64,000 bases of DNA, taken from an uncultured Ignavibacteriaceae bacterium (GTDB lineage: Bacteria > Bacteroidota > Ignavibacteria > Ignavibacteriales > Ignavibacteriaceae). Made by a program: the position numbers and the translations under genes. A model generated the notes under the pieces. That model did no database searches. It had not been told where the DNA came from and was given only the letters and a program-made list of their open reading frames with translations. Location: contig CAZHVS010000012.1 of the NCBI GenBank assembly GCA_964536015.1, positions 29,434 through 93,433 of the forward strand, written 5' to 3'. Below are positions 27,259 through 52,731 of this stretch, one piece after another (position 1 is the first letter of the stretch; every line of letters begins with the position of its first letter).

Positions 27259-27278
27259 ATTTCGTTAAACAACGAAAT
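27259..27278 (+). promoter_or_regulatory. candidate ArsR operator: perfect 8-4-8 inverted repeat ATTTCGTT-AAAC-AACGAAAT
   Basis: The palindrome ends 5 nt before the arsR ATG. The half-site AACGAAAT recurs at 27648-27655, upstream of arsC. Confidence 0.5.
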
Positions 27279-27283
27279 GAATT

Positions 27284-27631
27284 ATGTTAAAACAACAACA
27301 AAAAATCTATAAAGCTCTGTCAGATAGCAACCGCATTCGCATATTAAGAATGTTAAAAGAAAAAAATCTATGCGTCTGTGAAATCACCGCAATGTTAAAG
27401 CTTGCAACTTCAACCGTATCAAAACATCTTAGCATACTTAAAGAAGCAGGCTTTATTGTTGAATTTAAAGAAGGCAAGTGGGTTAATTATATGATTAACA
27501 CTCGTTCCGATAATCCATTGATTGCCTCTAATCTATCTTTGCTTAATATCTTAATAGATTCTGACGAGCAAATAAAAAAAGACAAGGAAAATTTAAAAAC
27601 TATTGACAGAAAAAATCTTTGTTGTACGTAA
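27284..27631 (+). CDS. arsR: ArsR/SmtB-family metalloregulator
   Basis: Winged-HTH core LSDSNRIRILRML...LCVCEI (the CVC metalloid-binding motif of ArsR). C-terminal CC pair. First gene of the ars operon. Confidence 0.9.
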   Translation: MLKQQQKIYKALSDSNRIRILRMLKEKNLCVCEITAMLKLATSTVSKHLSILKEAGFIVEFKEGKWVNYMINTRSDNPLIASNLSLLNILIDSDEQIKKDKENLKTIDRKNLCCT

Positions 27632-27669
27632 AAACGATTCGATACATAACGAAATAGAAAGAGGTCAGA

Positions 27670-28089
27670 ATGAAAATATTAATTTTGTGTACAGGTAATT
27701 CGTGCCGCAGCCAGATGGCTGAAGGATTTTTAAAATCATTTGATGATAAGCTCGAAGTTTTTAGCGCTGGAACGAATCCTGCTTATAAAGTTAGTTCTCA
27801 TGCCATTAGGGTAATGAAAGAAATTGGAATTGATATATCTGCAAATAAACCGAAGGATGTTTCCAATTTCCTGGGCGAATCATTTGATTATGTTATTACC
27901 GTTTGTGATAATGCAAAAGAAACCTGTCCTGTTTTTTCGGGGAAAGTAACTAAGCGACTGCATATTGGTTTTGAAGATCCTGCAGAAGCTGAAGGCACAG
28001 AGGAAGAAGTACTTGTTGTTTTTAGAAAAGTGAGAGATGAAATAAAAAATGATTTTTTCAATTTCTACGTAAATGAAATAAAAAAGTAA
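27670..28089 (+). CDS. arsC: arsenate reductase, thioredoxin-coupled LMW-PTP type
   Basis: P-loop CTGNSCRSQMAEG and the downstream Cys pair VCDNAKETCP. Confidence 0.9.
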   Translation: MKILILCTGNSCRSQMAEGFLKSFDDKLEVFSAGTNPAYKVSSHAIRVMKEIGIDISANKPKDVSNFLGESFDYVITVCDNAKETCPVFSGKVTKRLHIGFEDPAEAEGTEEEVLVVFRKVRDEIKNDFFNFYVNEIKK

Positions 28090-28109
28090 AATTTAGAAAG
28101 GATAAGACT

Positions 28110-28361
28110 ATGTTGAAAATTAAAGTTCTTGGCTCGGGTTGTGCAAACTGTATAAATCTTGAAAAGCTATGCAGAGAAGTTGTCACCGAAAACAGTATTG
28201 ATGCAGAAATAGAAAAGGTAACTGATTTTAATGAAATTATGAACTATGGAATAATGATGACCCCAGGGTTGGTTGTAAATGAAAGAGTAATTCATAGTGG
28301 TAAATTGCCTACAAAATCAACTTTAACTCAGTGGCTAATTAATGAACTGGCAAAAGACTAA
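28110..28361 (+). CDS. small thioredoxin-fold 'redox-active disulfide protein 2'-type protein
   Basis: 83 aa. MLKIKVLGSGCANCINLEKL contains the CxxC. It is a paralog of 34129..34368. Confidence 0.8.
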   Translation: MLKIKVLGSGCANCINLEKLCREVVTENSIDAEIEKVTDFNEIMNYGIMMTPGLVVNERVIHSGKLPTKSTLTQWLINELAKD

Positions 28362-28392
28362 TTATTTAGTTCAAACAATAGGAGAAAATAAA

Positions 28393-28941
28393 ATGGATAA
28401 TTCAAAAGAATGGCATTGGTTTAAAGGAGGAATATTCGTTTCTCTTTTGTCTGTTGCTACATATTTTATTTTTGCAGCAATTGCTGAAAGGAACTACCCT
28501 TTTGGTATAACAGCAGGGTTCGGTTTTATTGCCGGAAAATTTGGCTCTTTGTTCGAAGCGTTAAACAATAATCCGGCAATAAAAAGATATACTGAAAAGC
28601 CTGATGCATTTATCGAATTTTTTATTTTAATAGGAATAATATTAGGCGGTTATACTGCAAAAAAAACATCAGGCACTTTTTCTGTTGAAAACATTCCTGC
28701 GGTTTGGGAAAAATATCATGGTAAAAACCCGATAAAAAGATATTTATTTGTTTTTGCCGGAAGCATTTTGTTGGGTTATGGCGCTGCATTATCAAGTGGT
28801 TGTACAACAGGAAATATTCTTCAAGGCTGGGCACATCTTTCATTAGGTAGCATAGTTGCCGGTGCTTCGTTTTTTGCTGCAGGAATTTTAGTTGCAAGAA
28901 TTCTTTATCCTAAAATAGGAGCGAACAATGATCATAATTAA
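28393..28941 (+). CDS. YeeE/YedE-family sulfur/selenium-compound transporter, N-terminal half protein
   Basis: Multi-TM protein with conserved SSGCTTGN motif. I prefer the ATG at 28393 (AGGAG 8 nt upstream) over the ORF-track start at 28342. Confidence 0.75.
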   Translation: MDNSKEWHWFKGGIFVSLLSVATYFIFAAIAERNYPFGITAGFGFIAGKFGSLFEALNNNPAIKRYTEKPDAFIEFFILIGIILGGYTAKKTSGTFSVENIPAVWEKYHGKNPIKRYLFVFAGSILLGYGAALSSGCTTGNILQGWAHLSLGSIVAGASFFAAGILVARILYPKIGANNDHN

Positions 28942-29470
28942 TATTCTTTTCGGCTTAATTGTTGGATTCCTCTTTGGATTTATTCTTTCTAAAACCGGTA
29001 TAACAAAATATCCAAGAGTAATAGGAATGCTTTTATTAAAAGATTTTAAAATTCTTAAGTTTATGTTAACAGCGGTAACCTCTTCTTTAATTTTGTTCCA
29101 TTTATTCGGAGATTTAGGTCTATTAAAAGTTGCTCCTAAAAATCTTGATTGGGGAAAACTGGTTGGGGGTTTATTATTCGGAACAGGAATGGGATTACTT
29201 GGTTATTGTCCCGGTACAATGGCTGCTAGAATTGGAGAAGGAAAGAAGGAAGCTGTCTTTGCATTCTTTGGTATGGCATTTGGAATTTTTATATATGCTC
29301 TAACCATCAAACCTGTTAAAGAAACATTTTTATCGTCTGAGATAAATGGAGATATTTTCCTTCAACTTGGTTTGAATAAATGGTTAGTGATTCTTCCCGC
29401 TGCGGCTCTTTTTATTGGAATAATTTATTTTGTTAATAAAAAAATCAGCGATAACAATCATATATTTTAA
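28928..29470 (+). CDS. YeeE/YedE-family transporter, C-terminal half protein
   Basis: Multi-TM protein with GYCPGT motif. Overlaps the preceding half by 14 nt (translational coupling). Confidence 0.75.
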   Translation: MIIINILFGLIVGFLFGFILSKTGITKYPRVIGMLLLKDFKILKFMLTAVTSSLILFHLFGDLGLLKVAPKNLDWGKLVGGLLFGTGMGLLGYCPGTMAARIGEGKKEAVFAFFGMAFGIFIYALTIKPVKETFLSSEINGDIFLQLGLNKWLVILPAAALFIGIIYFVNKKISDNNHIF

Positions 29471-29478
29471 GGATTTAA

Positions 29479-30246
29479 ATGGAAAATATATCTATAGGCT
29501 TTATCGGTGGTGGCAGAATAACTAAGATTTTCTTTCGACGTTTATCCAAAGATGAAAAATATGCGGATTTTTGCGTGAGTGATTGTAATGAGGAATTACT
29601 ATCTTTTTACAAATCATCTAATGTTGAAACAACTTCAGACAACAATATTCCTGCAAAAAGAGACATTGTATTCATAGCATTGCATCCCCCTGTTTTTATG
29701 CAAGTTCTCGAAGAAATAAAAAATTCTTTTAGTGAAAAAACTATTTTAATTTCTTTAGCACCAAAGATTACTATTGAAAAAATGTCAACTCAATTAAATG
29801 GACATAAAAAAATTGTTCGTTCAATTCCTAATTCACCAACAATGATTGGTCTTGGATATAATCCCTTATCTTTTTCTAAAAATTTTCCTTCAGATGAAAA
29901 AAAGATTGTTTTCGAACTATTTGAAAACTTTGGAAAATGGTTTGAAGCTGAAGAAAATAAATTAGAAGCATATGCTTTAATTACAGCTATGGGTCCAACA
30001 TATTTTCAATTTCAGTATAAGAGACTATTTGAACTTGCAAAGTCTTTTGGAATGAATGAACAGGAAGCAAGGGAAGGAATATTTAATATGTTGATTGGAA
30101 CAGCAAATCTTGTGTTTAATAGCAAATTCAATTATGATCAAGTCAACGACTTAATTCCTGTGAAACCACTTGAAGATGACCACGAGAAAATTGAAAATAT
30201 TTTTAATAATAAATTATTACCGCTTTTTAATAAACTAAAGAACTAG
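29479..30246 (+). CDS. NAD(P)-binding pyrroline-5-carboxylate-reductase-like oxidoreductase
   Basis: N-terminal Rossmann motif [13 protein letters not shown] and a ProC-like C-terminal helical domain. Confidence 0.5.
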
Positions 30247-30251
30247 AAACC

Positions 30252-31292
30252 ATGGAAGCTATAACAAAAAAACTCTCATTCCTTGACAGATATCTTACGC
30301 TCTGGATTTTTCTTGCAATGTTTATTGGAGTGTTTTCTGGTTATCTGTTTCCAGGAATTGTTGATTTCTGGAATTCATTTCAGAGCGGGACAACAAATAT
30401 TCCCATTGCAATTGGTTTGATTTTAATGATGTACCCACCGCTCGCCAAAGTTAAATACGAAGAGCTTGGTGACGTTTTCAAAAATGTGAAAGTACTTACT
30501 TTGTCTCTTGTTCAAAACTGGATAATCGGACCTATTCTTATGTTCTTTCTCGCAATAATTTTTCTTCCGGATTATCCCGAATATATGGCGGGATTGATTT
30601 TGATTGGGCTTGCAAGATGCATTGCTATGGTAATTGTGTGGAATGAACTTGCAAAAGGAGATACTGAATATGCAGCGGGTCTGGTTGCTTTTAATTCAAT
30701 TTTCCAGGTTTTGTTTTTCTCTGTTTATGCTTATGTGTTTCTAACCGTTTTTCCTTCCTGGTTAGGATTAAAGACATTTGCTGTTGATATTACAATTGGA
30801 CAAATAGCTGAATCCGTTTTCATTTATCTCGGCATACCATTCATAGCCGGTATGATTACACGCTTCACTCTACTAAAACTAAAAAGTAAAGAGTGGTACG
30901 AGAAAAAATTTATTCCTAAGATTTCGCCTATTACCTTAATCGCTCTGCTATTTACAATTGTTGTTATGTTTTCTCTTAAAGGCGAATACATTGTAAAAAT
31001 TCCAATTGACGTAATAAGAATAGCAATACCTTTGGTGCTTTATTTTGTAATTATGTTTTTTGTTTCGTTTTATATGGGACAAAAAGTTGGAGCTGATTAT
31101 GCAAAAACTGCAACGCTCTCCTTTACTGCGGCCAGCAACAACTTTGAACTTGCCATTGCAGTTGCAATTGCTGTATTTGGAATAAATTCAGGTGAAGCTT
31201 TTGCTGCTGTTATTGGTCCGCTAGTGGAAGTACCAGTATTAATTAGTCTGGTCAATGTTGCCATTTGGTTTAAGAAAAAAATCTTTGTTTAA
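30252..31292 (+). CDS. acr3: ACR3-family arsenite efflux transporter
   Basis: [17 protein letters not shown]-terminus, 10-TM layout and the conserved GLARCIAMV Cys motif of Acr3. Confidence 0.9.
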
Positions 31293-31317
31293 AATTTATT
31301 AATATGCTGGGTTAAGA

Positions 31318-32127
31318 ATGAAAACTGAAAATAAGCTTAAGGACATTGTTAAAGAAAAATATGGAAAAATAGCTTTCGCTGCTAAATCTACTGGATGTTG
31401 TAATTCGTCAACTTCCTGTTGTAACAATTCTTCAAGCGTTGAATTTATTATGATAGGAGATGAGTATAAAAATTTAAACGGGTATGTCCCCGATGCGGAT
31501 CTCGGTTTAGGTTGTGGTTTGCCAACTGAAGTTGCTGGCATTAAAGAGGGAGATATAGTTTTAGACCTTGGTTGTGGTGCTGGTAATGATGTTTTTATTG
31601 CTCGTTCTGTTGTCGGAGAAAAAGGAAAAGTTATCGGTATTGATATGACCGCTGAAATGATTGAGAAAGCAAAGAATAATAATTCATTGACTAATTTTGA
31701 TAATGTTGAATTTCGACTTGGAGAAATTGAATCTCTGCCAGTTGATGATAATTCTATAGATGTTGTAATAAGCAATTGTGTCCTTAATCTTGTTCCTGAT
31801 AAAGAGAAAGCTTTTAAAGAAATTCTAAGAGTACTTAAACCCGGGGCTCACTTCTGTATTTCTGACACAGTATTAAATGGAGAATTACCGGAAGAATTTA
31901 AAAAATCAGCCGAGTTATACACGGGTTGTATCTCTGGTGCACTAAAAAAAGATGATTATTTAAATATCATTTTCAAAACTGGTTTTAATAATGTCGAAAT
32001 AGTAAAATCAAAAGAAATTAATTTACCGGAAGAAATTTTGCAAAAACATCTTTCGTCAGATGAATTAAAACAATTTAAGAAAAATAGCGTGGGAATTTTC
32101 AGCATTACCATAAAAGGAAAGAAGTAA
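31318..32127 (+). CDS. arsM: arsenite S-adenosylmethionine methyltransferase
   Basis: KYGKIA start region, N-terminal Cys pairs (GCCNSSTSCC), SAM motif VLDLGCGAGNDV, and conserved Cys in SNCVLNL and TGCISGA. Confidence 0.85.
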   Translation: MKTENKLKDIVKEKYGKIAFAAKSTGCCNSSTSCCNNSSSVEFIMIGDEYKNLNGYVPDADLGLGCGLPTEVAGIKEGDIVLDLGCGAGNDVFIARSVVGEKGKVIGIDMTAEMIEKAKNNNSLTNFDNVEFRLGEIESLPVDDNSIDVVISNCVLNLVPDKEKAFKEILRVLKPGAHFCISDTVLNGELPEEFKKSAELYTGCISGALKKDDYLNIIFKTGFNNVEIVKSKEINLPEEILQKHLSSDELKQFKKNSVGIFSITIKGKK

Positions 32128-32135
32128 ATTTTATT

Positions 32136-33440
32136 ATGAACTGGAAAGAACAATATAAATCATTTTTGTGGGTATCAGGATTTTTTCTGCTTGCATACTT
32201 TATGCCCATTGAAACAGAAAAATTTAAAAATGCAATTATTGATGCTTTTACACTTGCAAAATGGTATGCACAAGAACATGTTTTACTTTGCCTTGTACCT
32301 GCTTTTTTTATCGCTGGTACGATTGCAGTGTTTATAAGTCAGGCTGCTGTTATAAAATATCTTGGTGGAAAAGCAAAAAAATGGGTTGCATATACAGTGG
32401 CTGCAACAAGCGGGACAATTTTAGCTGTTTGTTCCTGTACTGTTTTACCATTGTTTTCATCAATACATAAAAGAGGAGCTGGACTGGGTCCGGCAATAGC
32501 ATTTCTTTATTCGGGTCCGGCAATAAATATTCTTGCTATAATTTTAACAGCAAGAATACTTGGATTTGAACTTGGTATTGCCCGCGTTATCGGAGCCGTT
32601 TCGTTCAGTGTTATAATTGGATTAGTCATGTCTTTCATTTACCGAAAAGAAGAAAAAGAAAGAAACGGCAACAACACCGTTGTTCCAGAGATAGAAGAAT
32701 CCAGACCTATCTGGCAAACAACTCTTCACTTCTTTATTCTTGTTGCAATACTTGTATTTGTCAACTGGGGAAAACCTTCAAATGAAACCGAAGGTTTCTG
32801 GTATTTTATGTTTGCAAACAAATGGTTTATAACATCCATCTTTGGTGCAGGATTCGCATTCTCTTTAATATACATAATAAAAGTTAAAAAACTCTTTGTT
32901 GTTTTAGGAACCGCCTCTGTTATTATTTCGGCTTATTTCTTTTACCACACCCCCACAATTCCTTTTGTTGTAGGTGTAATTACAACAACTATTGCGTTAA
33001 CTTTTAGTGATGATGAACCAAATCAATGGCTTGGTGAGACCTGGGGATTTGCAAAACAAATTATGCCTCTTCTCGGTGCGGGTGTTTTAGTTGCGGGATT
33101 TCTTCTCGGCTCAGCCGAAGGAAATGGAGGAATAATTCCAAAAGATTGGATTTATGCTCTTGTTGGAGGAAACTCTTTATTCTCTAATCTTTTTGCTTCA
33201 GTTACAGGGGCATTTATGTACTTTGCAACTTTAACTGAAATACCGATACTTCAAGGCTTGATAAAAAATGGAATGGGAAAAGGTCCGGCACTTGCTTTAC
33301 TTCTTGCTGGCCCGGCTTTATCACTACCAAATATGCTTGTAATCAGGAGCGTAATAGGTACACAGAAAACAGTTGTATATGTTTCCCTTGTAATAATAAT
33401 GGCTACAATAACAGGTATAATTTATGGTTGGATATTTTAA
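32136..33440 (+). CDS. UPF0718/DUF318-type permease (ArsP-like organoarsenical permease family)
   Basis: Polytopic membrane protein with the CSC motif (AVCSCTVLPLF) characteristic of this permease family. Located next to arsM. Confidence 0.65.
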   Translation: MNWKEQYKSFLWVSGFFLLAYFMPIETEKFKNAIIDAFTLAKWYAQEHVLLCLVPAFFIAGTIAVFISQAAVIKYLGGKAKKWVAYTVAATSGTILAVCSCTVLPLFSSIHKRGAGLGPAIAFLYSGPAINILAIILTARILGFELGIARVIGAVSFSVIIGLVMSFIYRKEEKERNGNNTVVPEIEESRPIWQTTLHFFILVAILVFVNWGKPSNETEGFWYFMFANKWFITSIFGAGFAFSLIYIIKVKKLFVVLGTASVIISAYFFYHTPTIPFVVGVITTTIALTFSDDEPNQWLGETWGFAKQIMPLLGAGVLVAGFLLGSAEGNGGIIPKDWIYALVGGNSLFSNLFASVTGAFMYFATLTEIPILQGLIKNGMGKGPALALLLAGPALSLPNMLVIRSVIGTQKTVVYVSLVIIMATITGIIYGWIF

Positions 33441-33461
33441 ACAAAGTCAAGAAAACAAAAT

Positions 33462-34127
33462 ATGAAGACCTTTTGTATCATACTCATTTTTATCTTCTGC
33501 GCTGAGAATTATTCTTCTACTAATTTATATGAACGAATGCGCTCTATCATTTCAGAAATAAACATTGAACTAAACGATAATAAATTACCGCGAAAAAGCG
33601 ATGTGTCAAGGCTTAATAAATTAATCTACAATTTAAAGAAAACAGAAAATCTTAAAGAAGATAAAAAGCAAGATATTGATTATATAATCAAAGTAAATGA
33701 ATTATTTAATAGCTTTAAAACTTTCAATATTGTATTTAAAGAACGCATTGAGGTTGATTCATTAAAAAAAATATTTAGAATCGTTAACAGTAAATTCAAT
33801 TCCATTGCAGGTAATTATTTTTATAAGAAAGTAATAAAATCAACAAAAATTAAAATAATATTCTTTTCAACCTCAATGTCGTGTGAATGCACTTTAGAGA
33901 TGTGTTACAAACAAGAATCCGAAATTCAAAAACTATATAAGAATAATTTCAATAAATTTGAGTATGCAACTATCGACTGTTTTGGTAATTTTGAATTAAT
34001 GTCAGAATATGGAATAGGATATATCCCCGTTGCCGTTATTACAGACTCAAACAATAATGAAATTAAAAGATTTGAAAGAGATGAAAATTTATTTAATAAT
34101 TTATTAACTTTTTTTAATGGAGAATAA
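33462..34127 (+). CDS. hypothetical secreted protein with a C-terminal thioredoxin-like region carrying CxC-x4-C
   Basis: Signal-like N-terminus. The C-terminal KIKIIFFSTSMSCECTLEMC...GIGYIPVAVI resembles a Trx fold with a cis-Pro loop. I recognise no family. Confidence 0.55.
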   Translation: MKTFCIILIFIFCAENYSSTNLYERMRSIISEINIELNDNKLPRKSDVSRLNKLIYNLKKTENLKEDKKQDIDYIIKVNELFNSFKTFNIVFKERIEVDSLKKIFRIVNSKFNSIAGNYFYKKVIKSTKIKIIFFSTSMSCECTLEMCYKQESEIQKLYKNNFNKFEYATIDCFGNFELMSEYGIGYIPVAVITDSNNNEIKRFERDENLFNNLLTFFNGE

Positions 34128-34128
34128 A

Positions 34129-34368
34129 ATGATAGCTGTTAAAATACTCGGCACCGGCTGTAAAAAGTGCCAGAATCTTGAAAACAAAGTAAGAGAACTT
34201 GTGGCATTAAACAATATTAGCGCAACTATAGAAAAGGTTACCGATATACAAGAAATGATGGCTTATGGAATAATGATGACCCCGGGATTGGTTATAAATG
34301 AAAAAGTAAAAAGCTCTGGTATAATTCCAACGGATGAGCAAATTCTAACATGGCTTAAGGAAAATTAA
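34129..34368 (+). CDS. small thioredoxin-fold 'redox-active disulfide protein 2'-type protein (second copy)
   Basis: MIAVKILGTGCKKCQNLENKV..., paralogous to 28110..28361 (shared YGIMMTPGLV). I prefer the ATG at 34129 with GGAG upstream; the ORF track starts at 34117. Confidence 0.8.
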   Translation: MIAVKILGTGCKKCQNLENKVRELVALNNISATIEKVTDIQEMMAYGIMMTPGLVINEKVKSSGIIPTDEQILTWLKEN

Positions 34369-34370
34369 TT

Positions 34371-34742
34371 ATGAAGTTAACTGGTTTTTTAATTACAATT
34401 TTTATGATTGTTTTATCTTTGTATTCATTCCCTCAAAACAACAATCAGATTAAACCAAAAGTAACATTTATCGAACTCGGTTCTGATAAATGTATTCCCT
34501 GCAAACAAATGCAGCCAATATTAAAGTCTATTGAAAAAAAATATGGAAGTCAGATTAAAGTAATTTTTTATGATGTATGGAAAGATGATAAGCCTGCCAA
34601 AAAATATGGAATTCAACTTATACCTACACAAGTTTTTTTAGATGAAGCAGGAAAAGAATTTTTCAGGCATGAAGGTTTTTATCCAGAAGCCGAAATCGAT
34701 AAACTATTACAAAAAAAAGGGTTAAAAACTATTGCTGAATAA
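34371..34742 (+). CDS. periplasmic thioredoxin-family protein (TlpA/Trx-like)
   Basis: Signal/anchor segment, CIPC active site and cis-Pro loop LIPTQVF. Confidence 0.8.
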   Translation: MKLTGFLITIFMIVLSLYSFPQNNNQIKPKVTFIELGSDKCIPCKQMQPILKSIEKKYGSQIKVIFYDVWKDDKPAKKYGIQLIPTQVFLDEAGKEFFRHEGFYPEAEIDKLLQKKGLKTIAE

Positions 34743-34766
34743 AATCGGCATTATTAAAAGAAAATT

Positions 34767-35468: not shown

Positions 35469-35610
35469 TTTATCTGTTTAATACAATTTTACATGTCTGT
35501 TAAATTAAACTCTTTTTCTAAATTCTCATCTACGGTGTAAGAACAATTCATTTTGTTGATTTAATTCTTTATAATATTTTAGGGTATAAAATAATTTAAA
35601 TTTCTGACTT

Positions 35611-36057: not shown

Positions 36058-36105
36058 AAGTTTATACTATAAAACAATGCACAACTTAAACAATAGAGAA
36101 ATATT

Positions 36106-41940: not shown

Positions 41941-42034
41941 AACCTAAGAAAATGGTCTTCATTTTGAACTGGAATAGCAGAATAGCTCTGGTATGAATTT
42001 AGAGTATTATTATTTTGTAAAATGAGCTGTAATA

Positions 42035-43066: not shown

Positions 43067-43075
43067 GAAATCCAA

Positions 43076-43522: not shown

Positions 43523-43570
43523 TTTTTAAGAATTAAGAAATAATAATAAAATTATACAAAGGAGCAAATT

Positions 43571-43819: not shown

Positions 43820-43910
43820 TTAGTAATAAAAAGCTAAAATAAGAATTAATAAAAAATCTCTTTAACTAGTGAAAAAATATTTATAAAGAAATATAGAAGG
43901 AACAATAAAA

Positions 43911-44291: not shown

Positions 44292-44305
44292 AGCAAGGTA
44301 CAAAC

Positions 44306-45172: not shown

Positions 45173-46049
45173 ATATCATCAAATAGTTATATTAAGCGGT
45201 AAAGGGGGAACAGGCAAAACAACGTTTACTGCATCGTTTGCTAAACTGTTGCAAAACAAAACCGTTATTGATTGTGATGTAGATGCGGCTAATTTGCATT
45301 TGCTACTTAATCCTACTATAACTGATGAGTTTACGTTTGTTGGTGGACGCAAAGCATTAATAGATTTAAGCAATTGTAATAAGTGTGGATTATGTGAAGA
45401 ACTTTGTCGTTTTGATGCAATTAAAAATTTCTTTATTGATCCGATCAGCTGTGAGGGTTGTGGCTTATGTGTTAAAGCTTGTCCTTCATCCGCAATATCT
45501 TTTTTACCCAATACTTCCGGTAAATACTTTAAATGCAAAACAGAAGACGATTCTCTTTTCTATTATGCGCGGCTAAATCCCGGAGAAGGCAATTCAGGTA
45601 AACTTGTAAGTGAAATAAAAAAAGAAGCTGTTAAAAATCTTTCTAAAAACACAGAGTGGCTTATTATCGATGGACCTCCCGGCATAGGCTGCCCTGTAAA
45701 TGCAAGTCTCTCGGGTTCGGACTTTGTTTTACTAATAACTGAACCAACTCTTTCAGCTTTACACGACTTAAAAAGATTAATTGCTCTTATAACAAACTTA
45801 AAATATAAACATGGTCTTGTTATAAATAAATTTGATTTAAATGAACATATTACTGAAGAAATAATTAATTATACAAAGAAAATTCATACACCAATCATGG
45901 GTATGTTAGAATTCAATCCGGATTTTGCTTATGCTCTTCTTTCGGGCAAAACAATAATTGAATATAATTCAGAAATCAAAAAACAAATTCAAAATATTCT
46001 TAATAAAATAATTTTTTTTGTACAACACATAAATGGAGATGAATTATGA
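45162..46049 (+). CDS. MinD/Mrp-like P-loop ATPase with 2x[4Fe-4S] ferredoxin insert (second copy)
   Basis: Walker A is ILSGKGGTGKTT. Ferredoxin motifs are CNKCGLCEELC and CEGCGLCVKACP. Overlaps the preceding gene by 11 nt. Confidence 0.85.
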   Translation: MGNKYHQIVILSGKGGTGKTTFTASFAKLLQNKTVIDCDVDAANLHLLLNPTITDEFTFVGGRKALIDLSNCNKCGLCEELCRFDAIKNFFIDPISCEGCGLCVKACPSSAISFLPNTSGKYFKCKTEDDSLFYYARLNPGEGNSGKLVSEIKKEAVKNLSKNTEWLIIDGPPGIGCPVNASLSGSDFVLLITEPTLSALHDLKRLIALITNLKYKHGLVINKFDLNEHITEEIINYTKKIHTPIMGMLEFNPDFAYALLSGKTIIEYNSEIKKQIQNILNKIIFFVQHINGDEL

Positions 46050-46381
46050 AAATTGCTGTAACATCAACAGGAGGCTCTATGGAAGCTCTTATGAGTGAAC
46101 AATTTGGACGCTGTCAATATTTTTTAATAGTGGATCCCGATACTATGAAATTTGAAACCCTATCAAATCTTGGCGAACAAATGCAAAGCGGTGCCGGACT
46201 TAAAGCTGCTGAGTTAATAATTAACAGGGGCGCTAAAGTTCTTCTTACCGGTCACGTTGGCGATAAAGCCGAAGAAGCTCTCAAACGAGGTGGGATAAAA
46301 ATCGTTGATGGATATAAAGGTAACATAAAAGTTCGTGAGGCAATTAATGATTTTTTATCACAACACAAAGAAGAGAAATAA
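46046..46381 (+). CDS. NifB/NifX-family (FeMo-cofactor-binding domain) protein (second copy)
   Basis: MKIAVTSTGGSMEALMSEQFGRCQYFLIVD...LLTGHVGDKA. ATGA overlap with the preceding ATPase gene. Confidence 0.8.
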   Translation: MKIAVTSTGGSMEALMSEQFGRCQYFLIVDPDTMKFETLSNLGEQMQSGAGLKAAELIINRGAKVLLTGHVGDKAEEALKRGGIKIVDGYKGNIKVREAINDFLSQHKEEK

Positions 46382-46927
46382 ATGTACGTTCCAACAAAAA
46401 TATTTTTTACAAAAGGTGTAGGCAGACATAAAGATTATCTTAGTTCCTTTGAAGCCGCTTTAAGAAACGCCGGTATTGAAATGTGCAATTTGGTCATGGT
46501 CAGTAGCATTTTTCCTCCGGGCTGCAAAATAATTCCTAAACAGAAGGGTTTAAAAAAGATTGATCCGGGTCAAATAACTTTTGCTGTTATGGCAAGGAAT
46601 TCAACTAATGAACCAAACCGTTTAATTGCTGCATCTGTTGGGGTTGCAATTCCGGCGAACGGCAAGCATTATGGCTATCTTTCCGAATATCACCCATTTG
46701 GTGTAAAAGAAAAAATCGCCGGAGATTATGCAGAAGATCTGGCAGCACAAATGCTTGCAACAACTTTAGGTGTTGAATTTGATTCACAAACGGATTGGAA
46801 TGAAAGAGAACAGGTATTCAAGATGTCAGGAAAAATTGTTAAAACCTTTAATATTACGCAATCTGCAGAGGGAGATAAAACAGGTATGTGGACAACTGTT
46901 CTTTCAGCCGCTATTCTGTTACCATAA
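46382..46927 (+). CDS. pdaD: pyruvoyl-dependent arginine decarboxylase
   Basis: [40 protein letters not shown] is the conserved self-processing region of PvlArgDC. The start codon directly abuts the preceding stop. Confidence 0.85.
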
Positions 46928-46932
46928 TAATT

Positions 46933-47343
46933 ATGAATATTGATTTATCTAAAATTATAATTGAAACAAATATTGAAATAAATGCTTACGATATTGATAT
47001 TGCCGGGCACGTTAACAATATTGTCTTTATAAGATGGTTAGAAGATTTACGAAATAAATTATTTTCTGCAATTTGTCCATTGGAGAAATTATTGGAAAAT
47101 AATTTTTATCTTGTCGTAATTTCAACCGAGGTTAAATATAAAAAACAAGTCCGGTTGTTTGATAAACCACACGGCATTATGTATCTAGAAAATGTTTCAC
47201 ATGGTGTATTTGTTTTTAAGGCACAGATAGTCCTAAAAAATAAAATTATTTTTGAAGCAACTCAAAGAGGCGTTTTAATGAATCTATGTTCGGGGACAAT
47301 GTATTCAGGAAAAATAAGCGATTTCATTTCGAGTATTAAATAA
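46933..47343 (+). CDS. hotdog-fold acyl-CoA thioesterase (4HBT/YbgC-like)
   Basis: INAYDIDIAGHVNNIVFIRWLEDLR matches the 4HBT catalytic region (D..GHV.N..Y). I prefer the ATG at 46933 over the ORF-track start at 46888, which overlaps pdaD. Confidence 0.7.
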   Translation: MNIDLSKIIIETNIEINAYDIDIAGHVNNIVFIRWLEDLRNKLFSAICPLEKLLENNFYLVVISTEVKYKKQVRLFDKPHGIMYLENVSHGVFVFKAQIVLKNKIIFEATQRGVLMNLCSGTMYSGKISDFISSIK

Positions 47344-47417
47344 AAAATCTTTCGTGATTGCATCCAAAATCACGAATAATCATCCAATGAATAAAAATAA
47401 TAAAAACTTATAAATAA

Positions 47418-48257
47418 ATGGATATTGCATTAAAAATAGCAAAAGAGTCTTTTCAGATTACTTTGCTGGTTGCTGTAATGATGATTCTTGTTGACGTAAT
47501 TAATGTTGCTACAAAAAACAAACTCGAATCATTTTTTATTAATGCAAGAAAGTTTAAACAATATGTGCTTGCATCATTAATAGGAGCTGTCCCTGGTTGC
47601 ATTGGTGGATTTACAAATGTTTCTCTTTACATTCATGGCTTAATTAGCTTTGGAGCACTTACGGGTGCAATGGTTTCTGTTTCTGGCGATGAAGCTTTCG
47701 TAATGCTTGCAATGTTTCCTAAACAAGCTATCATCCTTTTTGCTGTTCTTTTTATGATTGGAATTTTTAGTGGATGGTTAATTGACATTATTATTAAAAA
47801 GTATAAAATTCCAGTTTGTGAAAATTGTAAAGAGATGGTTGTTCATCCAAAAGAAATAGGATTCAAACATTACCTTAAAGAACACATTTATGGACATATA
47901 ATTAAAAAGCATCTTTGGAAAACTGTTCTCTGGACTTTTGGAGCTTTAGCTGTTGTTGAGTTTGGACTCAAATATTTACACCTCGAAGAGTTTACTTCAC
48001 AATATAAAGTTGTATTTCTTCTCGTTAGTGCGTTGATTGGATTGATTCCTGAATCTGGTCCTCACCTGATATTTGTTACATTATTTGCACAAGGATTGAT
48101 TCCTTTTTCAGTATTGCTTACAAGCTCTATTGTTCAGGATGGACATGGAATGCTGCCAATGCTTTCATATTCCTTGAGAGATTATATTAAAATAAAATTA
48201 TTTAATCTTCTTATTGGAATATTTATTGGCTTATCTCTTTTACTTATGGGCTTATAA
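47418..48257 (+). CDS. polytopic membrane protein, possibly of the putative 10-TM heavy-metal exporter (ArsP_2-like) family
   Basis: About 8-10 TM helices and a central CENCKEM...H..E..H.H segment. The family assignment is from memory of overall features only. Confidence 0.35.
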   Translation: MDIALKIAKESFQITLLVAVMMILVDVINVATKNKLESFFINARKFKQYVLASLIGAVPGCIGGFTNVSLYIHGLISFGALTGAMVSVSGDEAFVMLAMFPKQAIILFAVLFMIGIFSGWLIDIIIKKYKIPVCENCKEMVVHPKEIGFKHYLKEHIYGHIIKKHLWKTVLWTFGALAVVEFGLKYLHLEEFTSQYKVVFLLVSALIGLIPESGPHLIFVTLFAQGLIPFSVLLTSSIVQDGHGMLPMLSYSLRDYIKIKLFNLLIGIFIGLSLLLMGL

Positions 48258-48368
48258 AATAAATTCAATTTAATTAAATAAGTCCGTTAATTTTACTCTG
48301 AACTTCTTTCTGAAACTATTTAGTCATTTCATCATCTTACCTAAGTAGAAATTAAAAAATAAATATAT

Positions 48369-48617
48369 ATGAATAATCAACCAAAAGTTATAGTATTTTC
48401 AACGCCAACCTGTACATTCTGCAATCAGGCAAAAAGATATTTTAAAGAAAAAAATATCAGATTTACTGATGTTGATGTTTCAAAAGATCAATCAGCCGCA
48501 AGAGATATGATGCGAAGAACAGGGCAGATGGGCGTACCGGTAATTTTAATTAATAACAAAGCTATAATCGGCTTTGATAGAAATAAGATCAATCAAATGT
48601 TAAACATAAAAAACTAA
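48369..48617 (+). CDS. glutaredoxin-like protein (NrdH/YruB-like)
   Basis: 82 aa. VIVFSTPTCTFCNQAKRYF carries the CxxC, with GVPVILIN as the cis-Pro region. Confidence 0.8.
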   Translation: MNNQPKVIVFSTPTCTFCNQAKRYFKEKNIRFTDVDVSKDQSAARDMMRRTGQMGVPVILINNKAIIGFDRNKINQMLNIKN

Positions 48618-48627
48618 CGGAGTTATA

Positions 48628-48900
48628 ATGAAGATTAAACCATTAGATGATAGAGTATTACTTGAACCAATGCCAGCAGAAGAAAAAACATCTTCTGGAT
48701 TAATTATACCTGATTCTGCAAAGGAAAAACCGCGTGTTGGTGTTGTTATTGCAGTAGGTACTGATGAGGATTTAAAAGAAAAAATTAAAGAAGGTAACAA
48801 AGTTCTTTTTGCCAAATACGGCGGAGACGAAATTGAAATGAATGGCAAAGAATATAGAATTTTACAACGCTCTGATATTCTTGCTGTAGTTGAAGATTAA
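48628..48900 (+). CDS. groES: co-chaperonin GroES (stand-alone copy, no adjacent groEL)
   Basis: MKIKPLDDRVLLEPMPAEEKTSSGLIIPDSAKEKP..G.VIAVG is canonical Cpn10. 90 aa. Confidence 0.9.
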   Translation: MKIKPLDDRVLLEPMPAEEKTSSGLIIPDSAKEKPRVGVVIAVGTDEDLKEKIKEGNKVLFAKYGGDEIEMNGKEYRILQRSDILAVVED

Positions 48901-48920
48901 TTAAACAGAAAAGGAATAAA

Positions 48921-49265
48921 ATGTTAAGAACAAATTTAACTCACGTGCTTTCAGAAGCAGACCATGCAGAACTATTAAAAAACAACGAAAATGTTATGAT
49001 ATGCTGCGGCAGAATGGGACCAATGTGTATACCTGTTTATGAAGTAATGGAAGAACTTGAAAGCGAATATAAAAATGTAAAGTTTGCTGATATGGAATTT
49101 GATATACCTGATGCAAGGGTTATAAGAAACCTGCCGGAGTGTAGAAGTTTTCAGGGATTGCCATTTGTTGTTTACTATAAAAACGGACAGGTTGTAAAAG
49201 CCACAAGCAGTATTCAATCAAAAGAACAAGTAACTGCTATACTTGATGAAAAATTTGGAAAGTAA
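48921..49265 (+). CDS. thioredoxin-fold protein with atypical CC-x6-C active-site region
   Basis: The Trx-like layout (VMICCGRMGPMCIPV...GLPFVVYYKNG) has CCGRMGPMC in place of WCGPC. Confidence 0.65.
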   Translation: MLRTNLTHVLSEADHAELLKNNENVMICCGRMGPMCIPVYEVMEELESEYKNVKFADMEFDIPDARVIRNLPECRSFQGLPFVVYYKNGQVVKATSSIQSKEQVTAILDEKFGK

Positions 49266-49344
49266 CTTAGTCACTCTCAAAAGCAGCTCTGTTACTGATT
49301 ATCTGTTACCGCTTTATTAAAGTTGGTTTATAGATTAAATAAAT

Positions 49345-49377
49345 AGCCTCATTCATTCGGATGGGGCTGTTATTTCT
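49345..49377 (+). terminator. rho-independent terminator after the thioredoxin-like gene
   Basis: AGCCTCAT / ATGGGGCT stem (one G-U pair) with loop TCATTCGG, followed by GTTATTTCT. Confidence 0.55.
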
Positions 49378-49441
49378 AAGGTATTCGGAATTGCTTAATG
49401 ACTTATTAATCATTACAATAAATTTATATTCGGAAAATGTT

Positions 49442-50398
49442 ATGGACAATCATTTTGATGCGATAGTAATTGGGGCTGGGGCAGCAGGATTAACTGCTGG
49501 TATTTATCTCTCACGTGCAAAAGTTAAAACATTAATACTTAATGAAGGTGCAATTGGCGGACAAATGGTGCTTACTCACGAGATTGCAAATTATCCCGGT
49601 GTGGAAAATATAAGCGGATATGAGCTTGCACGAACAATGAAGACTCAGGCACAAAAGTTTGGTTGTACTATTAAATCAAACATTAAAATTTCATCATTAG
49701 AATTAAATGAGGAATTAAAAAAAGTAACTGTTAATAATAAAGATGTTTATACATCAGATGCCTTAATAATTGCCACCGGAGGTAAATCCAGGATGATTGG
49801 TGCAATTGGTGAAAATGAATTTAAAGGAAAAGGCATTTCATACTGTGCAACCTGCGATGGAGATTTTTTTCAGGATAAAGAAATTATTGTTGTTGGCGGC
49901 GGTAACTCAGCTTTAGAAGAAGCTGTTTCACTTACAAAGTATGCATCTAAAGTTACTGTTGTACATCAGTTCGATCACTTTCAGGCATTTGAGCATTACG
50001 TTGATGAAGCAAAGAAAAATGAAAAGATCAGCTTTATAATGGAATCTAAAATAATTGAGTTTAATGGAAGTGAAAAATTAGAGTCAGTTAAAATTCAACA
50101 TCAGGCTACAAATGAAATTACCGAAATGAAGATAGATGGAGTATTTATCTTTATTGGTTATGTTCCTAATACAGAATTTCTTGAAGGAATTGTTGAACTT
50201 AATCAGTGGAAAGAAATTGTTGTTGATAAAGATATGAAGACAAATGTAACAGGAGTTTTTGCAGCCGGCGATTCAATTCAAAAAAGATATAGACAGGTTA
50301 CAACAGCAGTAGCTGATGGTACAATTGCTGCTTTAAGTGCTGCTGATTATATAAATAATCTTAAGCAAGAAGCAAAACTGGAAGAAGTTGTGCATTAA
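49442..50398 (+). CDS. trxB: thioredoxin-disulfide reductase
   Basis: FAD site DAIVIGAGAAGLTAG, redox-active CATCDG and NADPH site VVGGGNSALEEA. I prefer the ATG at 49442 over the ORF-track start at 49361. Confidence 0.9.
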   Translation: MDNHFDAIVIGAGAAGLTAGIYLSRAKVKTLILNEGAIGGQMVLTHEIANYPGVENISGYELARTMKTQAQKFGCTIKSNIKISSLELNEELKKVTVNNKDVYTSDALIIATGGKSRMIGAIGENEFKGKGISYCATCDGDFFQDKEIIVVGGGNSALEEAVSLTKYASKVTVVHQFDHFQAFEHYVDEAKKNEKISFIMESKIIEFNGSEKLESVKIQHQATNEITEMKIDGVFIFIGYVPNTEFLEGIVELNQWKEIVVDKDMKTNVTGVFAAGDSIQKRYRQVTTAVADGTIAALSAADYINNLKQEAKLEEVVH

Positions 50399-50458
50399 AA
50401 TTCTATGCTGGTTCTTGATGCAAGCGTGATGTAACTACTTGTCAGGAATTTTTTAATT

Positions 50459-51070
50459 ATGCAAAATAAAAATCACTGGTATGATGGCTGGTTTTATGAT
50501 AAGTTAATTGCGCCAAACCAGGATAGAATGTTTAGAGAGATAAAAAATCTTATCGAACAAAATTCAACAGTATTAGATGTTGGATGCGGAACAGGCAGAT
50601 TTTCGTTTTCTGTCGCTGACAAAGTTTCAAAAATTGTCGGAGTAGATTTATCAGTCAAAAACATCGCAACTGCAAATCAAACGCTTCAGAAAAATCCAAA
50701 CAAAAAAATTTCTTTTATTCAAAATAACACTGCCGAACTAATTGAACAAAAACTGCATTTTGATTATGCTGTTATGACTTACGTAATTCATGAAGTTTAT
50801 ACTGAAGATAGAATTTCTTTGCTTAAACAGTTAGCTCAGATTGCTGATAAGATTATTATTGGTGATTATCTTGTACCTGTTAATAATGGCTTTTGGGGTA
50901 CTTTGAATGAGGTTGTTGAGTACTTAGCGGGTAAAGAACATTACGCTAACTTTAAAGATTATGTTAAGAATGGTGGATTAAAAACTTTAAGCAGCAAAGC
51001 TAATCTTAAAATCATCGAAGAGATAAAAAACAAACCATCAACAAGTCATATTGTTTTGATTTCTAAATAA
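50459..51070 (+). CDS. class I SAM-dependent methyltransferase
   Basis: Motif I is VLDVGCGTGRFS. 203 aa. Substrate not inferable from sequence alone. Confidence 0.75.
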   Translation: MQNKNHWYDGWFYDKLIAPNQDRMFREIKNLIEQNSTVLDVGCGTGRFSFSVADKVSKIVGVDLSVKNIATANQTLQKNPNKKISFIQNNTAELIEQKLHFDYAVMTYVIHEVYTEDRISLLKQLAQIADKIIIGDYLVPVNNGFWGTLNEVVEYLAGKEHYANFKDYVKNGGLKTLSSKANLKIIEEIKNKPSTSHIVLISK

Positions 51071-51236
51071 ACAGAAAAGTTGTTTAGTTGTAATCTTTAG
51101 AAGATTGCTAATGAAAATATTTTATTGTTTATAGGTTAGTGACTTATTAAAAAAATCTTTCTATCAAAAAAAAATCTTTTAGAACCTAAAAGAATTTTTA
51201 TTCATCTCACCCATCGATAATAAAAAAAATAATCTG

Positions 51237-52187
51237 ATGAACAATAAACTAAAAAATTTTCCTATCACAAGCTTTGCAATTGTAATGGGTTTAACTGGTT
51301 TTACAATTGCGTTAAATAAATTCTATCATCTTAACTGGCTGCCCAAAATACTTTATGATGGGTTTCTGTTTGCAGTTTTGTTTTTATTCTTACTGTTTCT
51401 TATTGTTTATTTAACAAAGCTTGTTAAATATCCTGAAGAAGTTAAAAATGACTTTAATCATAGGATAAGAATTAATTTCTTTTCCACTATATCAATCTCT
51501 TTGCTTTTACTTTCAGTAGCATTTTATACATACTTCCCAATGCTTGCTATTATTTTGTGGTGGGCCGGAACAATTCTACATACATTTTTTACATACAAAA
51601 CAATTACGTTCTGGATACAGCATAATTTTGAGATGAAGCATTTTAATCCTGCCTGGTTTATTCCAGTAGTAGGCAATATTATCATACCTGTAGTTGGTGT
51701 TGATCTGTTGCCTGTTGCATTCTCGTTTTTCTTTTTTTCAACAGGATTTATCTTCTGGATAATTTTATTCACAATATTTATATACAGAGCAGTGTTTCAC
51801 GATCAGCTTGCACAAAAATTTGTACCTACTTTTTTTATTTTGCTTGCACCACCTGCAGTAGGATTTATATCATACATTAGAATTGCAACAAGCTGGGATT
51901 TATTTTCAATCTTTTTATTATTTAGCTCATATTCTATTGCAATTCTTTTATTGTTCCTTTATAAAAGTTTTAAGCAGTTAAAGTTTTTTCTTTCGTGGTG
52001 GGCGTTTACTTTTCCTCTTACAGCTCTAACAATTGCATCGGTTGTAGCATATCAGGTTGCTGCCGAATCAATGTACAAAGTTCTTGCTTGGATATTTCTT
52101 ATGATATCAATTGTGGTTATAAGTATCGTTTCATATCAAACCATTATTCATATTCTTAAAGGAGAAATTTGTGTTCAGGAAGAATAG
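51237..52187 (+). CDS. tehA: TehA/SLAC1-family (tellurite-resistance / dicarboxylate transporter, TDT) anion channel protein
   Basis: 10-TM protein with a FPITSFAIVMGLTG start and an AWFIPVVGN motif, both typical of TehA homologs. Confidence 0.7.
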   Translation: MNNKLKNFPITSFAIVMGLTGFTIALNKFYHLNWLPKILYDGFLFAVLFLFLLFLIVYLTKLVKYPEEVKNDFNHRIRINFFSTISISLLLLSVAFYTYFPMLAIILWWAGTILHTFFTYKTITFWIQHNFEMKHFNPAWFIPVVGNIIIPVVGVDLLPVAFSFFFFSTGFIFWIILFTIFIYRAVFHDQLAQKFVPTFFILLAPPAVGFISYIRIATSWDLFSIFLLFSSYSIAILLLFLYKSFKQLKFFLSWWAFTFPLTALTIASVVAYQVAAESMYKVLAWIFLMISIVVISIVSYQTIIHILKGEICVQEE

Positions 52188-52224
52188 ATAATTTATTAAT
52201 TACATTAAATCTTAAAAATCTAAA

Positions 52225-52731
52225 ATGAAAACAAAATTATTAGTCATAGTATCAATTTTAATAGGCATGGTTATCGGGATTTTATTTTCTGGAATTGCAT
52301 TAAGTTTATCTGCCGGAAATATGATGTTGAAAGAAATTAAAAGTCCCTACGATTTTGATAAAACCATATCAGTACTGACGGAAAGAATTAATCAACAGCC
52401 AGGATGGCACGTTGTTAAAGTGATAGATCAAAACGAAGCTGTAACTTTGCACGGCGGCAAACCAATTGGCAAGTTTAATATTATACAGTATTGTAATGGA
52501 AAATCATCATCACAAATGTTAAGCTCTGATGATAGAAAAAAAATCGGCGCAATGATGCCAAAAGCTTTTGCTGTGTATGAAAAGTCAGATGGACAGGTTT
52601 ATTTAGCCACTTCAAACGGAATGGTAATGGGTAAACTTTTTGGTGGTGAAACTGAAAAACTGATTGAAGGTGTTTCAGTTGATGTAGAAAATATTTTAAG
52701 GTTTATGAATTTTAAGTTTACAGTGTTTTAA
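52225..52731 (+). CDS. DUF302-domain protein with N-terminal membrane anchor
   Basis: The size and the central/C-terminal pattern (...KFNIIQYCN...MMPKAFAVYEKSDGQVYL...) fit DUF302. Confidence 0.55.
   Translation: MKTKLLVIVSILIGMVIGILFSGIALSLSAGNMMLKEIKSPYDFDKTISVLTERINQQPGWHVVKVIDQNEAVTLHGGKPIGKFNIIQYCNGKSSSQMLSSDDRKKIGAMMPKAFAVYEKSDGQVYLATSNGMVMGKLFGGETEKLIEGVSVDVENILRFMNFKFTVF

Follow-up and report, generated by a model that had tools for sequence, protein, structure and literature searches.

An arsenic, sulfur and redox gene run in an Ignavibacteriaceae bacterium, read as a juxtaposition of separate modules

Whether genes that stand side by side and point the same way serve one chemistry is the question raised by a gene run of about 25 kb in an uncultured Ignavibacteriaceae bacterium. 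The run is near-unidirectional and is bounded by mfd (23852-27157, minus strand) and an OmpA-family gene (52793-54103, minus strand) in the 64-kb stretch of contig CAZHVS010000012.1 that we analyzed, hereafter called the window. It contains an arsenic resistance (ars) operon, a unit with an octaheme cytochrome of the Otr family, an operon resembling the orange protein (ORP) cluster, and several small units at its right end. The initial annotation took the whole as one functional super-cluster, in which the Otr/YeeE-rhodanese and radical SAM/NifX/MinD modules act on the same chemistry as the ars genes. Guilt by association is the chief route to functions for uncharacterized genes of uncultured bacteria, and arsenic roles given to the ORP-like and Otr modules from this run would spread wrong annotation.

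Our results do not support the super-cluster, since the modules stand apart in relatives and are associated with three regulators and no common operator. We regard it as likely, with good confidence on our part, that the stretch is not one functional unit but a lineage-specific juxtaposition, in one orientation, of chromosomal modules that evolve and are regulated separately. The modules recur apart with their own regulators, and therefore the neighborhood does not show one shared chemistry.

Placement and control of the modules

We examined the surroundings of radical SAM gene homologs in 80 species-representative loci, onto which the island proteins were mapped by tblastn; the counts for ORP loci refer to the 30 Ignavibacteria species-level loci with the activator and radical SAM pair. 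None of the 30 has ars genes within 10 kb of the ORP-like cluster. Glutaredoxin (Grx), GroES, the 114-aa protein, thioredoxin reductase (TrxR), TehA, mfd and OmpA are each absent from the same range (0/30 each). The MarR-Otr unit abuts the ORP-like cluster in seven loci (L002, L004, L010, L011, L014, L016 and L029), and its upstream neighbor in all seven, within the first ~3.4 kb, is hrcA-grpE-dnaJ on the opposite strand. No hrcA is found in the 64-kb window, and the hrcA-grpE-dnaJ operon is absent there. An Otr paralog lies inside the ORP-like operon in nine of the 30 loci; an Otr gene is in or abutting the operon in 13, and neither form is present in 17 within the stretch seen. Loci from archaea, Chloroflexi and Firmicutes keep the arrangement NifX-NifX-MinD-MinD-(CGGC)-radical SAM without ars genes.

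The ars genes were followed in 80 metagenome loci (L082-L161) around homologs of the permease ArsP_1, on contigs without taxon assignment; 45 of these loci reach 6 kb or more. In the 45 contigs, the ars genes of the window are found again as a set, at 60-90% identity and in shuffled order. The recurring members are ArsR, ArsP_1, ArsC, the ArsE-type thioredoxin (Trx), Acr3, a 221-aa protein, Trx3b-Trx-CcdA, the ProC-like reductase and sometimes ArsM, and the split YeeE pair accompanies them at 75-80% in two contigs (L091 and L112). YeeE, ProC-like and Trx-CcdA genes recur with the ars set and belong to the ars module, not to the modules beside it. In none of these 45 loci does an mfd, Otr or ORP-like gene stand beside the ars set. 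As judged from these contigs, the ars module is self-contained and is placed differently in different genomes. The proposal that the Otr/YeeE-rhodanese and radical SAM/NifX/MinD modules act on ars chemistry is not supported.

The arrangement of the window is kept at close range. Two Logan contigs from other samples (L162/L163) match it with 90% DNA identity over 32012-50981 in the same order, after which the methyltransferase gene passes straight to OmpA. The methyltransferase stands directly beside OmpA in these contigs, and therefore the TehA-DUF302 segment of the window is an indel. The alignment shows the arrangement to be a genus-level state. A synteny comparison, which the initial annotation had suggested for defining the island, accordingly gives conservation of the whole order only at ~90% DNA identity and scattered modules above the genus level.

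Judged by gene spacing and cis-elements, the run comprises eight or more transcription units, with regulators of three kinds. Gaps of 142, 169, 74, 111, ~173, 60 and 166 nt break the run, and the last five of these set apart ArsP_2, Grx-GroES-Trx-like, TrxR, the methyltransferase and TehA-DUF302; gaps within units are at most 38 nt in the ars operon and at most 48 nt in the Otr unit. Hairpins at 40093, 47351 and 52746 coincide with unit ends, and apart from these three, consensus scans for sigma-70 promoters and terminators stayed at chance level. The ArsR box, MarR, and an OrpR-like activator with a putative sigma-54 promoter represent different controls for the ars, Otr and ORP-like modules, and the tail units have no regulator. 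The ArsR box and the OrpR-like boxes were also sought before the other units in the window, where neither recurs. A search for RNA sequencing runs holding the region found none.

Predicted units of the run

Between mfd and the OmpA-family gene, 36 genes were counted, 35 of them on the plus strand. The near-unidirectional layout described in the initial annotation is thus borne out, though not its count of about 40 of 41 plus-strand genes. Pfam gives ArsR, low-molecular-weight phosphatase (LMWP) ArsC, two Thioredoxin_3 proteins, two pairs of split Sulf_transp (YeeE/YedE) proteins, SBF/Acr3, ArsM and ArsP_1; then Trx, DsbD_TM, MarR, Cytochrome_cB (Otr), cytochrome b561, rhodanese and a PAS sigma-54 activator; in the second half radical SAM, CGGC, DUF5320, two Nitro_FeMo-Co proteins, two MinD/CbiA-Fer4 proteins and ArsP_2; and at the right end Grx, a TrxR-like protein, a methyltransferase, SLAC1/TehA and DUF302. 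Nearly all families named beforehand are confirmed with Pfam or NCBIfam, but the common theme is broken by embedded off-theme genes for a pyruvoyl arginine decarboxylase, a 4HBT thioesterase and GroES. The window proteins are closest to those of Ignavibacterium album and Ignavibacteriales metagenome-assembled genomes (MAGs).

The duplicated components are diverged, as had been proposed, with amino acid identities of 57% for Trx3a/b, 38% for MinD-Fer4 a/b, 31-33% for the YeeE halves and 24% for the NifX-like proteins. Only the Trx3 pair is visible in DNA (199 nt, 70%). The two ArsP proteins, also listed as paralogs, do not belong here: comparison of ArsP_1 with ArsP_2 gave no detectable similarity, and these unrelated families have the name alone in common. 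From their divergence, the internal duplications are ancient paralogs; a recent internal duplication was rejected on the same identities (24-57%).

The ars operon (unit 1; 27284-35468, plus strand) was delimited by Pfam, NCBIfam and spacing. Its 13 genes encode, in order, ArsR, LMWP ArsC, an ArsE/MTH895-type Trx, a split YeeE/YedE pair, a ProC-like NADP reductase, Acr3, ArsM, the ArsP_1 permease, a 221-aa protein that is secreted and has no family match, a second ArsE-type Trx, a secreted Trx, and CcdA/DsbD_TM. ArsR matches HTH_5 with 62 bits and has a CVC motif at residues 30-32, ArsC matches LMWPc with 79 bits and has Cys7/12/79/86, SBF/Acr3 scores 213 bits in Pfam, ArsM scores 329 bits with NF008823 against a cutoff of 263 (NCBIfam), and Trx3a falls in the MTH895/ArsE family with the NCBIfam cutoff passed. 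A candidate ArsR operator, ATTTCGTT-aaac-AACGAAAT (27259-27278, plus strand), is a perfect 8+8 inverted repeat 5 nt before the arsR ATG. It is the sole perfect copy in 64 kb, and near-copies are confined to the 5' end of the ars operon, including a degenerate second copy, GATTCGAT-acat-AACGAAAT, in the arsR-arsC gap (27636-27655). This placement suggests that two candidate ArsR sites bracket arsR. The operon would be repressed by ArsR; ArsC would reduce arsenate, Acr3 would export arsenite, ArsM would methylate arsenite, and ArsP_1 would export methylarsenite, with thiol reducing power from the ArsE-type thioredoxins and the Trx-CcdA relay. The split YeeE pair and the ProC-like reductase are recurrent accessories of the operon; a literature search on YeeE within ars operons found nothing specific.

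Unit 2 (35611-40084, plus strand; Pfam) follows after the 142-nt gap before MarR and consists of MarR, the octaheme Otr-family cytochrome, cytochrome b561 and a split YeeE pair. The five-gene unit is kept in seven relatives. Otr scores 562 bits with TIGR04315 against a cutoff of 375 and has eight CxxCH motifs. The second YeeE half is fused to a rhodanese domain (39650-40084) with Ala at the catalytic Cys position (..IIVFVANDELTERK..); the C-terminus of the fused protein reads ..GGC. In the 29-nt gap between this gene and the convergent activator gene, the GC-rich hairpin AGCCGG-ttcaag-CCGGCT (40093-40110) is likely a bidirectional terminator for both, judging from its position. The unit is presumed to be controlled by MarR. 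The adjacent cytochrome b could link Otr to the quinone pool: quinol electrons would pass via cytochrome b561 to the membrane-anchored periplasmic octaheme cytochrome and on to tetrathionate or nitrite, and the sulfur product would be taken up through the YeeE-type channel.

The activator probably drives the operon that follows. It is an OrpR-like sigma-54 enhancer-binding protein with PAS-PAS-AAA+-HTH_8 architecture (40114-41853, minus strand; Pfam), encoded divergently from the radical SAM gene across a 169-nt gap. In alignment, its second PAS domain carries the triad C184-x8-C193-x3-C197 with E186 at position C+2, and the Cys triad is kept by 30/30 Ignavibacteria orthologs. OrpR has C52/C61/C65 plus D/E54 at identical spacing, and in OrpR these residues are ligands of a [4Fe-4S] cluster that senses redox state (PMC8359166). 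In the intergenic region, tandem TGCAAT/ATTGCA boxes (41873-41939, plus strand) mark candidate upstream activator sites that are kept in 24 related intergenic regions, and the 11-nt inverted repeat ATTGCAATTAT-n6-ATAATTGCAAT at 41912-41939 occurs as a perfect copy once only in the window. A sigma-54-type -24/-12 element, TGGTATGAATTTAGA (41989-42003, plus strand), lies ~32 nt before the radical SAM ATG and is the sole plus-strand match in the window. Its -12 half is degenerate, with TAGA instead of TTGC. A strict search with TGGCAC-N5-TTGC found no promoter in the island, and the element surfaced only via the 24 related intergenic regions, in which its position is conserved as TGG[ACT]A[CT]-N5-T[AT]G[ACT]; some relatives have canonical forms (TGGTAT-N5-TTGC in L055, TGGCAT-N5-TAGC in L021). 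The activator would sense the redox state through a PAS-bound Fe-S cluster at the C-x8-C-x3-C triad, and under reducing conditions would turn on the divergent ORP-like operon.

Pfam, a PDB match, motifs and synteny identify the divergent genes as a reduced ORP-like operon (unit 4; 42035-46381, plus strand) with the order radical SAM, CGGC, DUF5320, NifX-like a, MinD-Fer4 a, MinD-Fer4 b and NifX-like b, the last being the ORP homolog. The best PDB match of NifX-like b (46046-46381, PF02579) is 2WFB, the Desulfovibrio gigas ORP (E 1.7e-18, residues 2-105). Both MinD proteins, 38% identical to each other, have the Walker A motif GKGGTGKT and two CxxCxxCxxxC motifs. The same architecture, MinD-like with two [4Fe-4S] motifs each, has been described for Orp3/Orp4 (PMC6345978); the likeness of the window pair to DVU2103/2104 is one of published architecture, not of sequence alignment. 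The frame of MinD-Fer4 a is open from 44288 with no ATG, GTG or TTG before the Walker A motif (44288-44473). The TTG start seen in L009 and L012 is replaced by ATC (44306) in the window and by ATT in the 90%-identical L162 (12276-12420), and the P-loop codons of the window and L162 differ mainly synonymously. This pattern suggests that the gene is intact, has a non-canonical start and bears no lesion. The products would comprise two MinD-type Fe-S ATPases, NifX-fold cluster carriers, a radical SAM enzyme, CGGC and DUF5320. No Mrp/NBP35-type carrier (Orp9/MrpORP; ParA/NUBPL) was found by Pfam in the window cluster, although Mrp is in-operon in 16/30 relatives.

The window operon is a reduced copy of a longer one in relatives. 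The 5' part of the fuller Ignavibacteria operon reads radical SAM, [ARMT1-like, CoADR-like flavoprotein, Mrp, Otr paralog], CGGC, [PNPOx], second radical SAM, and its 3' part reads 108-aa protein, DUF5320, NifX, NifX, [MinD a, (peroxiredoxin), MinD b, NifX], PvlArgDC, [ArsP_2]. A tightly spaced 15-gene sigma-54 operon is found in L012 (10001-20877), and also in L002, L006, L009, L011, L016, L018, L019 and L029; it includes an 8-CxxCH Otr-family cytochrome, Mrp/NBP35, the CoADR-like flavoprotein, an ARMT1/DUF89-like protein and the second radical SAM. A peroxiredoxin (Prx) gene lies between the two MinD-Fer4 genes in L009 (17756-18472), L015 and L018, and it is 81-82% identical to the one at 56463-57167 in the window. 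Directly upstream of the OrpR-like gene, L006 has genes for a GAF-type enhancer-binding protein (GAF-EBP), Dps and Prx, and a CDF exporter gene lies upstream in L009.

A pyruvoyl-dependent arginine decarboxylase and a 4HBT thioesterase (46382-47343, plus strand; Pfam), both off-theme, trail the ORP-like cluster. The decarboxylase gene PvlArgDC (46382-46927) begins immediately behind NifX-like b (0-nt gap from its stop codon), shows the highest conservation in the neighborhood (75-86% identity), and is adjacent to the cluster in at least 20 of the 30 Ignavibacteria loci. This polyamine gene may share the transcript from the sigma-54 promoter. After a hairpin at 47351-47376, the ArsP_2 (PF11449) membrane protein gene forms its own unit (47418-48257, plus strand; Pfam), and it follows PvlArgDC in 9/30 relatives. 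Beyond the 111-nt gap come genes for Grx, GroES (Cpn10) and the 114-aa Trx-like protein (48369-49265, plus strand), the last without a Pfam match; this set is present in L162/L163 and absent from all 30 related loci. A TrxR-like flavoprotein and a small SAM methyltransferase follow (49439-51070, plus strand; Pfam). The TrxR-like open reading frame opens at 49361, with a likely start at 49439; the L162 gene call is 318 aa. The TehA/SLAC1-family transporter and DUF302 protein (51237-52731, plus strand; Pfam) form a variable cassette. The segment (~50982-52793), together with the last ~30 methyltransferase codons, differs in the 90%-identical relative (blastn and alignment), and no repeats were seen at the ends of the 1.7-kb indel. 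A hairpin with a 13-bp stem (52746-52779) between the convergent DUF302 and OmpA genes is likely a bidirectional terminator. Overall, the tail would consist of housekeeping and thiol-redox units (arginine decarboxylase, thioesterase, ArsP_2, Grx-GroES-Trx-like, TrxR and methyltransferase), with TehA-DUF302 as a cassette that comes and goes.

The left flank of the run is of the housekeeping type (SMC, triosephosphate isomerase, Nfu, Ogt, mfd). In the right flank (54264-58195), Pfam gives a GAF sigma-54 activator, Dps, a 1-Cys peroxiredoxin and a CDF exporter, so the redox/metal theme goes on beyond the OmpA-family gene and the borders of the run are soft. Between the divergent GAF-type activator and dps genes, TGGCACAAGGTTTGG at 55900-55914 is a near-consensus sigma-54 element. 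Integrase and transposase domains are found by Pfam neither among the island genes nor among 26 flank genes, the 64-kb window has no tRNA and no family in an Rfam scan, and around the run neither flanking direct repeats nor inverted terminal repeats were found. GC content is ~0.32 throughout the window. With the 64-kb window as reference, the modules have GC of 0.31-0.35 and GC at third codon positions (GC3) of 0.22-0.26, against 0.33 and 0.25 in flank genes, and the relative synonymous codon usage (RSCU) distance of every module is inside the flank-gene range; the compositional check suggested in the initial annotation, made here on GC, GC3 and codon usage, gives a match to the flanks. The GC skew has a minimum near 27 kb, but it tracks gene strand, and a replication origin there was therefore rejected as a reading; origin features were not searched for. 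The region is supported as chromosomal and without sign of recent mobile insertion, because its flanks are housekeeping, mobility genes are absent and the composition is native. On this point, as on the lack of integrase, transposase, tRNA and flanking direct repeats, the initial annotation holds.

Competing explanations for the neighborhood

Several observations weigh against a mere juxtaposition. Relatives were viewed within 10 kb of one marker gene, and the boundaries of the units and their regulatory independence are inferred from spacing and motifs only, as co-transcription, substrates and induction signals are likewise inferred. Two other assemblies with 90% nucleotide identity share the full order, or at least the part between arsM and the methyltransferase, so that it is genus-stable. 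Eight of the ~9 units have the same direction, which would happen by chance in roughly 2% of cases under equal odds. Peroxiredoxin, Dps, CoADR-like flavoprotein and Otr paralog genes are often beside or inside the ORP-like operon of relatives; judging from these loci, some thematic clustering around that operon is real, and the theme runs into the right flank.

A functional super-cluster, held by selection on common As/S/Se/Te thiol chemistry and with the uncharacterized modules serving arsenic handling, would fit the order conserved in three independent assemblies, the 35 of 36 genes on one strand, the thematic enrichment, and the YeeE-type and thioredoxin-type genes in both the ars and Otr units. 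We nevertheless consider it improbable: the co-location is gone at ~70% marker identity, ars genes are near none of the 30 ORP-like clusters, hrcA-grpE-dnaJ and not ars is upstream of MarR-Otr in relatives, and none of the 45 ars contigs has an Otr or ORP neighbor. The two YeeE pairs are only 31-33% identical, each with its own orthologs, the three regulators have no common operator, and an arginine decarboxylase and GroES are embedded off-theme. Archaea and other anaerobes moreover retain the ORP cluster with no ars genes, and its response in Desulfovibrio is to redox potential (PMC8359166). Acquisition of one or more genomic islands, possibly nested, by horizontal transfer with later loss of mobility genes is, in our estimate, about as improbable. 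It would account for the ars set being found in many contexts and in shuffled order, for the presence or absence of TehA-DUF302 between near-identical genomes, and for an ars operon in place of hrcA-grpE-dnaJ as the left neighbor of MarR-Otr, yet integrases, transposases, tRNAs and terminal repeats, direct or inverted, are lacking, every module is within the flank-gene spread of GC, GC3 and codon usage, and the ORP-like core shows vertical synteny across the class together with PvlArgDC and ArsP_2. The window comes from a metagenome contig of JGI sample 3300022666, which leaves an assembly chimera of unrelated pieces to be considered, but this is very improbable indeed. The identical Otr protein is present on seven contigs, composition is uniform, and two Logan assemblies are collinear at 90% over 32012-50981 and on the OmpA side, so that a chimera is ruled out for most junctions, mfd/arsR being the sole one without independent confirmation.

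More room must be left for a looser redox-stress neighborhood, in which only Otr and the thiol/peroxide-defense genes are tied to the ORP-like operon and ars is a bystander; we hold it doubtful, though still the strongest of the competitors. The 8-CxxCH Otr paralog inside the sigma-54 operon (9/30) and the abutting MarR-Otr (7/30) speak for such a tie, as do the peroxiredoxin between the MinD genes in three loci, the CoADR-like flavoprotein and Mrp in-operon in many, the GAF-EBP, Dps and Prx genes directly upstream in L006, and the role of OrpR as a redox sensor (PMC8359166). Set against these are the 17/30 loci without either Otr form in the stretch seen, the periplasmic location of Otr versus the cytoplasmic one of the ORP proteins, the window Otr unit having its own MarR and being convergent with the activator gene, and Grx, GroES, Trx-like and TrxR genes never being near the cluster in 30 relatives. 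Modules that are scattered and separately regulated, the outcome named in the initial annotation as speaking against a shared function, are thus what is seen for the ars operon and the tail genes, and the Otr-ORP association survives. We therefore keep to the juxtaposition of separate modules as the probable reading.

Under that reading, a thematically coherent, co-oriented 25-kb run can be a genus-level accident of chromosome rearrangement. The useful residue is a clade-typical ars variant, an OrpR-type activator conserved in 30/30 ORP-like loci, and the recurrent association of Otr with ORP-like genes. The lead of most interest is the recurrent grouping of Otr and peroxide/disulfide-defense genes with the ORP-like operon, which fits the redox-sensor role of OrpR. 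An Otr-ORP link is plausible, as Otr-family cytochromes recur with the ORP-like cluster in relatives. Functional coupling of the Ignavibacteria ORP system to Otr-family octaheme cytochromes is a tentative idea that we think unlikely; periplasmic reduction of tetrathionate or nitrite could then depend on the ORP machinery to supply, repair or regulate a cofactor or sulfur species. To our knowledge, the cellular role of the ORP system is still unknown, even in Desulfovibrio, and such coupling, if true, would be the first physiological handle on ORP function.

Comparison with known systems

Known ars operons regulated by ArsR comprise Acr3, Trx-coupled LMWP ArsC, ArsM and the methylarsenite permease ArsP. 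Unit 1 resembles them in the CVC motif of ArsR, the Cys triad of ArsC, Acr3, ArsM above its cutoff, ArsP_1 and the small ArsE/MTH895-type thioredoxins. It differs from them in adding the split YeeE/YedE pair, the ProC-like NADP reductase, the 221-aa secreted protein and the Trx-CcdA relay. Because these extra genes recur in related metagenome contigs, unit 1 is, by gene content, a clade-typical variant of the ars operon. As in classical resistance islands, resistance and stress genes are clustered and parts of the run (the ars block and TehA-DUF302) are variable between relatives; unlike in classical genomic islands, there is no integrase or transposase, tRNA target or terminal repeat, the composition is native, and the core is vertically syntenic.

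In an Ignavibacteriae MAG, an Otr and cytochrome b561 pair has already been interpreted as a terminal reductase (PMC7509429). Unit 2 is similar to that system in the eight CxxCH motifs, the score above the TIGR04315 cutoff and the adjacent membrane cytochrome b. Contrarily to it, unit 2 starts with MarR and ends with a split YeeE pair and a rhodanese domain without the catalytic cysteine.

The closest counterpart of the radical SAM/NifX/MinD set and its activator is the orp cluster of D. vulgaris Hildenborough with OrpR (DVU2103-DVU2109; PMC8359166, PMC6345978, PMC3897727). The window has one operon where D. vulgaris has two divergent ones, its activator has an additional N-terminal PAS domain, and its enhancer boxes are TGCAAT repeats in contrast to GGGCGYRTTTTGCGCCC in D. 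vulgaris. The -12 half of its putative promoter is degenerate, genes for radical SAM, CGGC and DUF5320 are added, the phylum is Ignavibacteria, and the Mrp (Orp9) gene is missing from the window cluster, though it is in-operon in relatives. Shared are a divergent PAS-AAA+-HTH sigma-54 activator with the C-x8-C-x3-C triad and, at C+2, the acidic residue, a putative sigma-54-type promoter preceded by palindromic sites, a pair of MinD-like ATPase paralogs, each with two [4Fe-4S] motifs as in Orp3/Orp4, and a Nitro_FeMo-Co protein nearest to the D. gigas orange protein. On these correspondences in gene content and motifs, the set is a version of the known ORP cluster.

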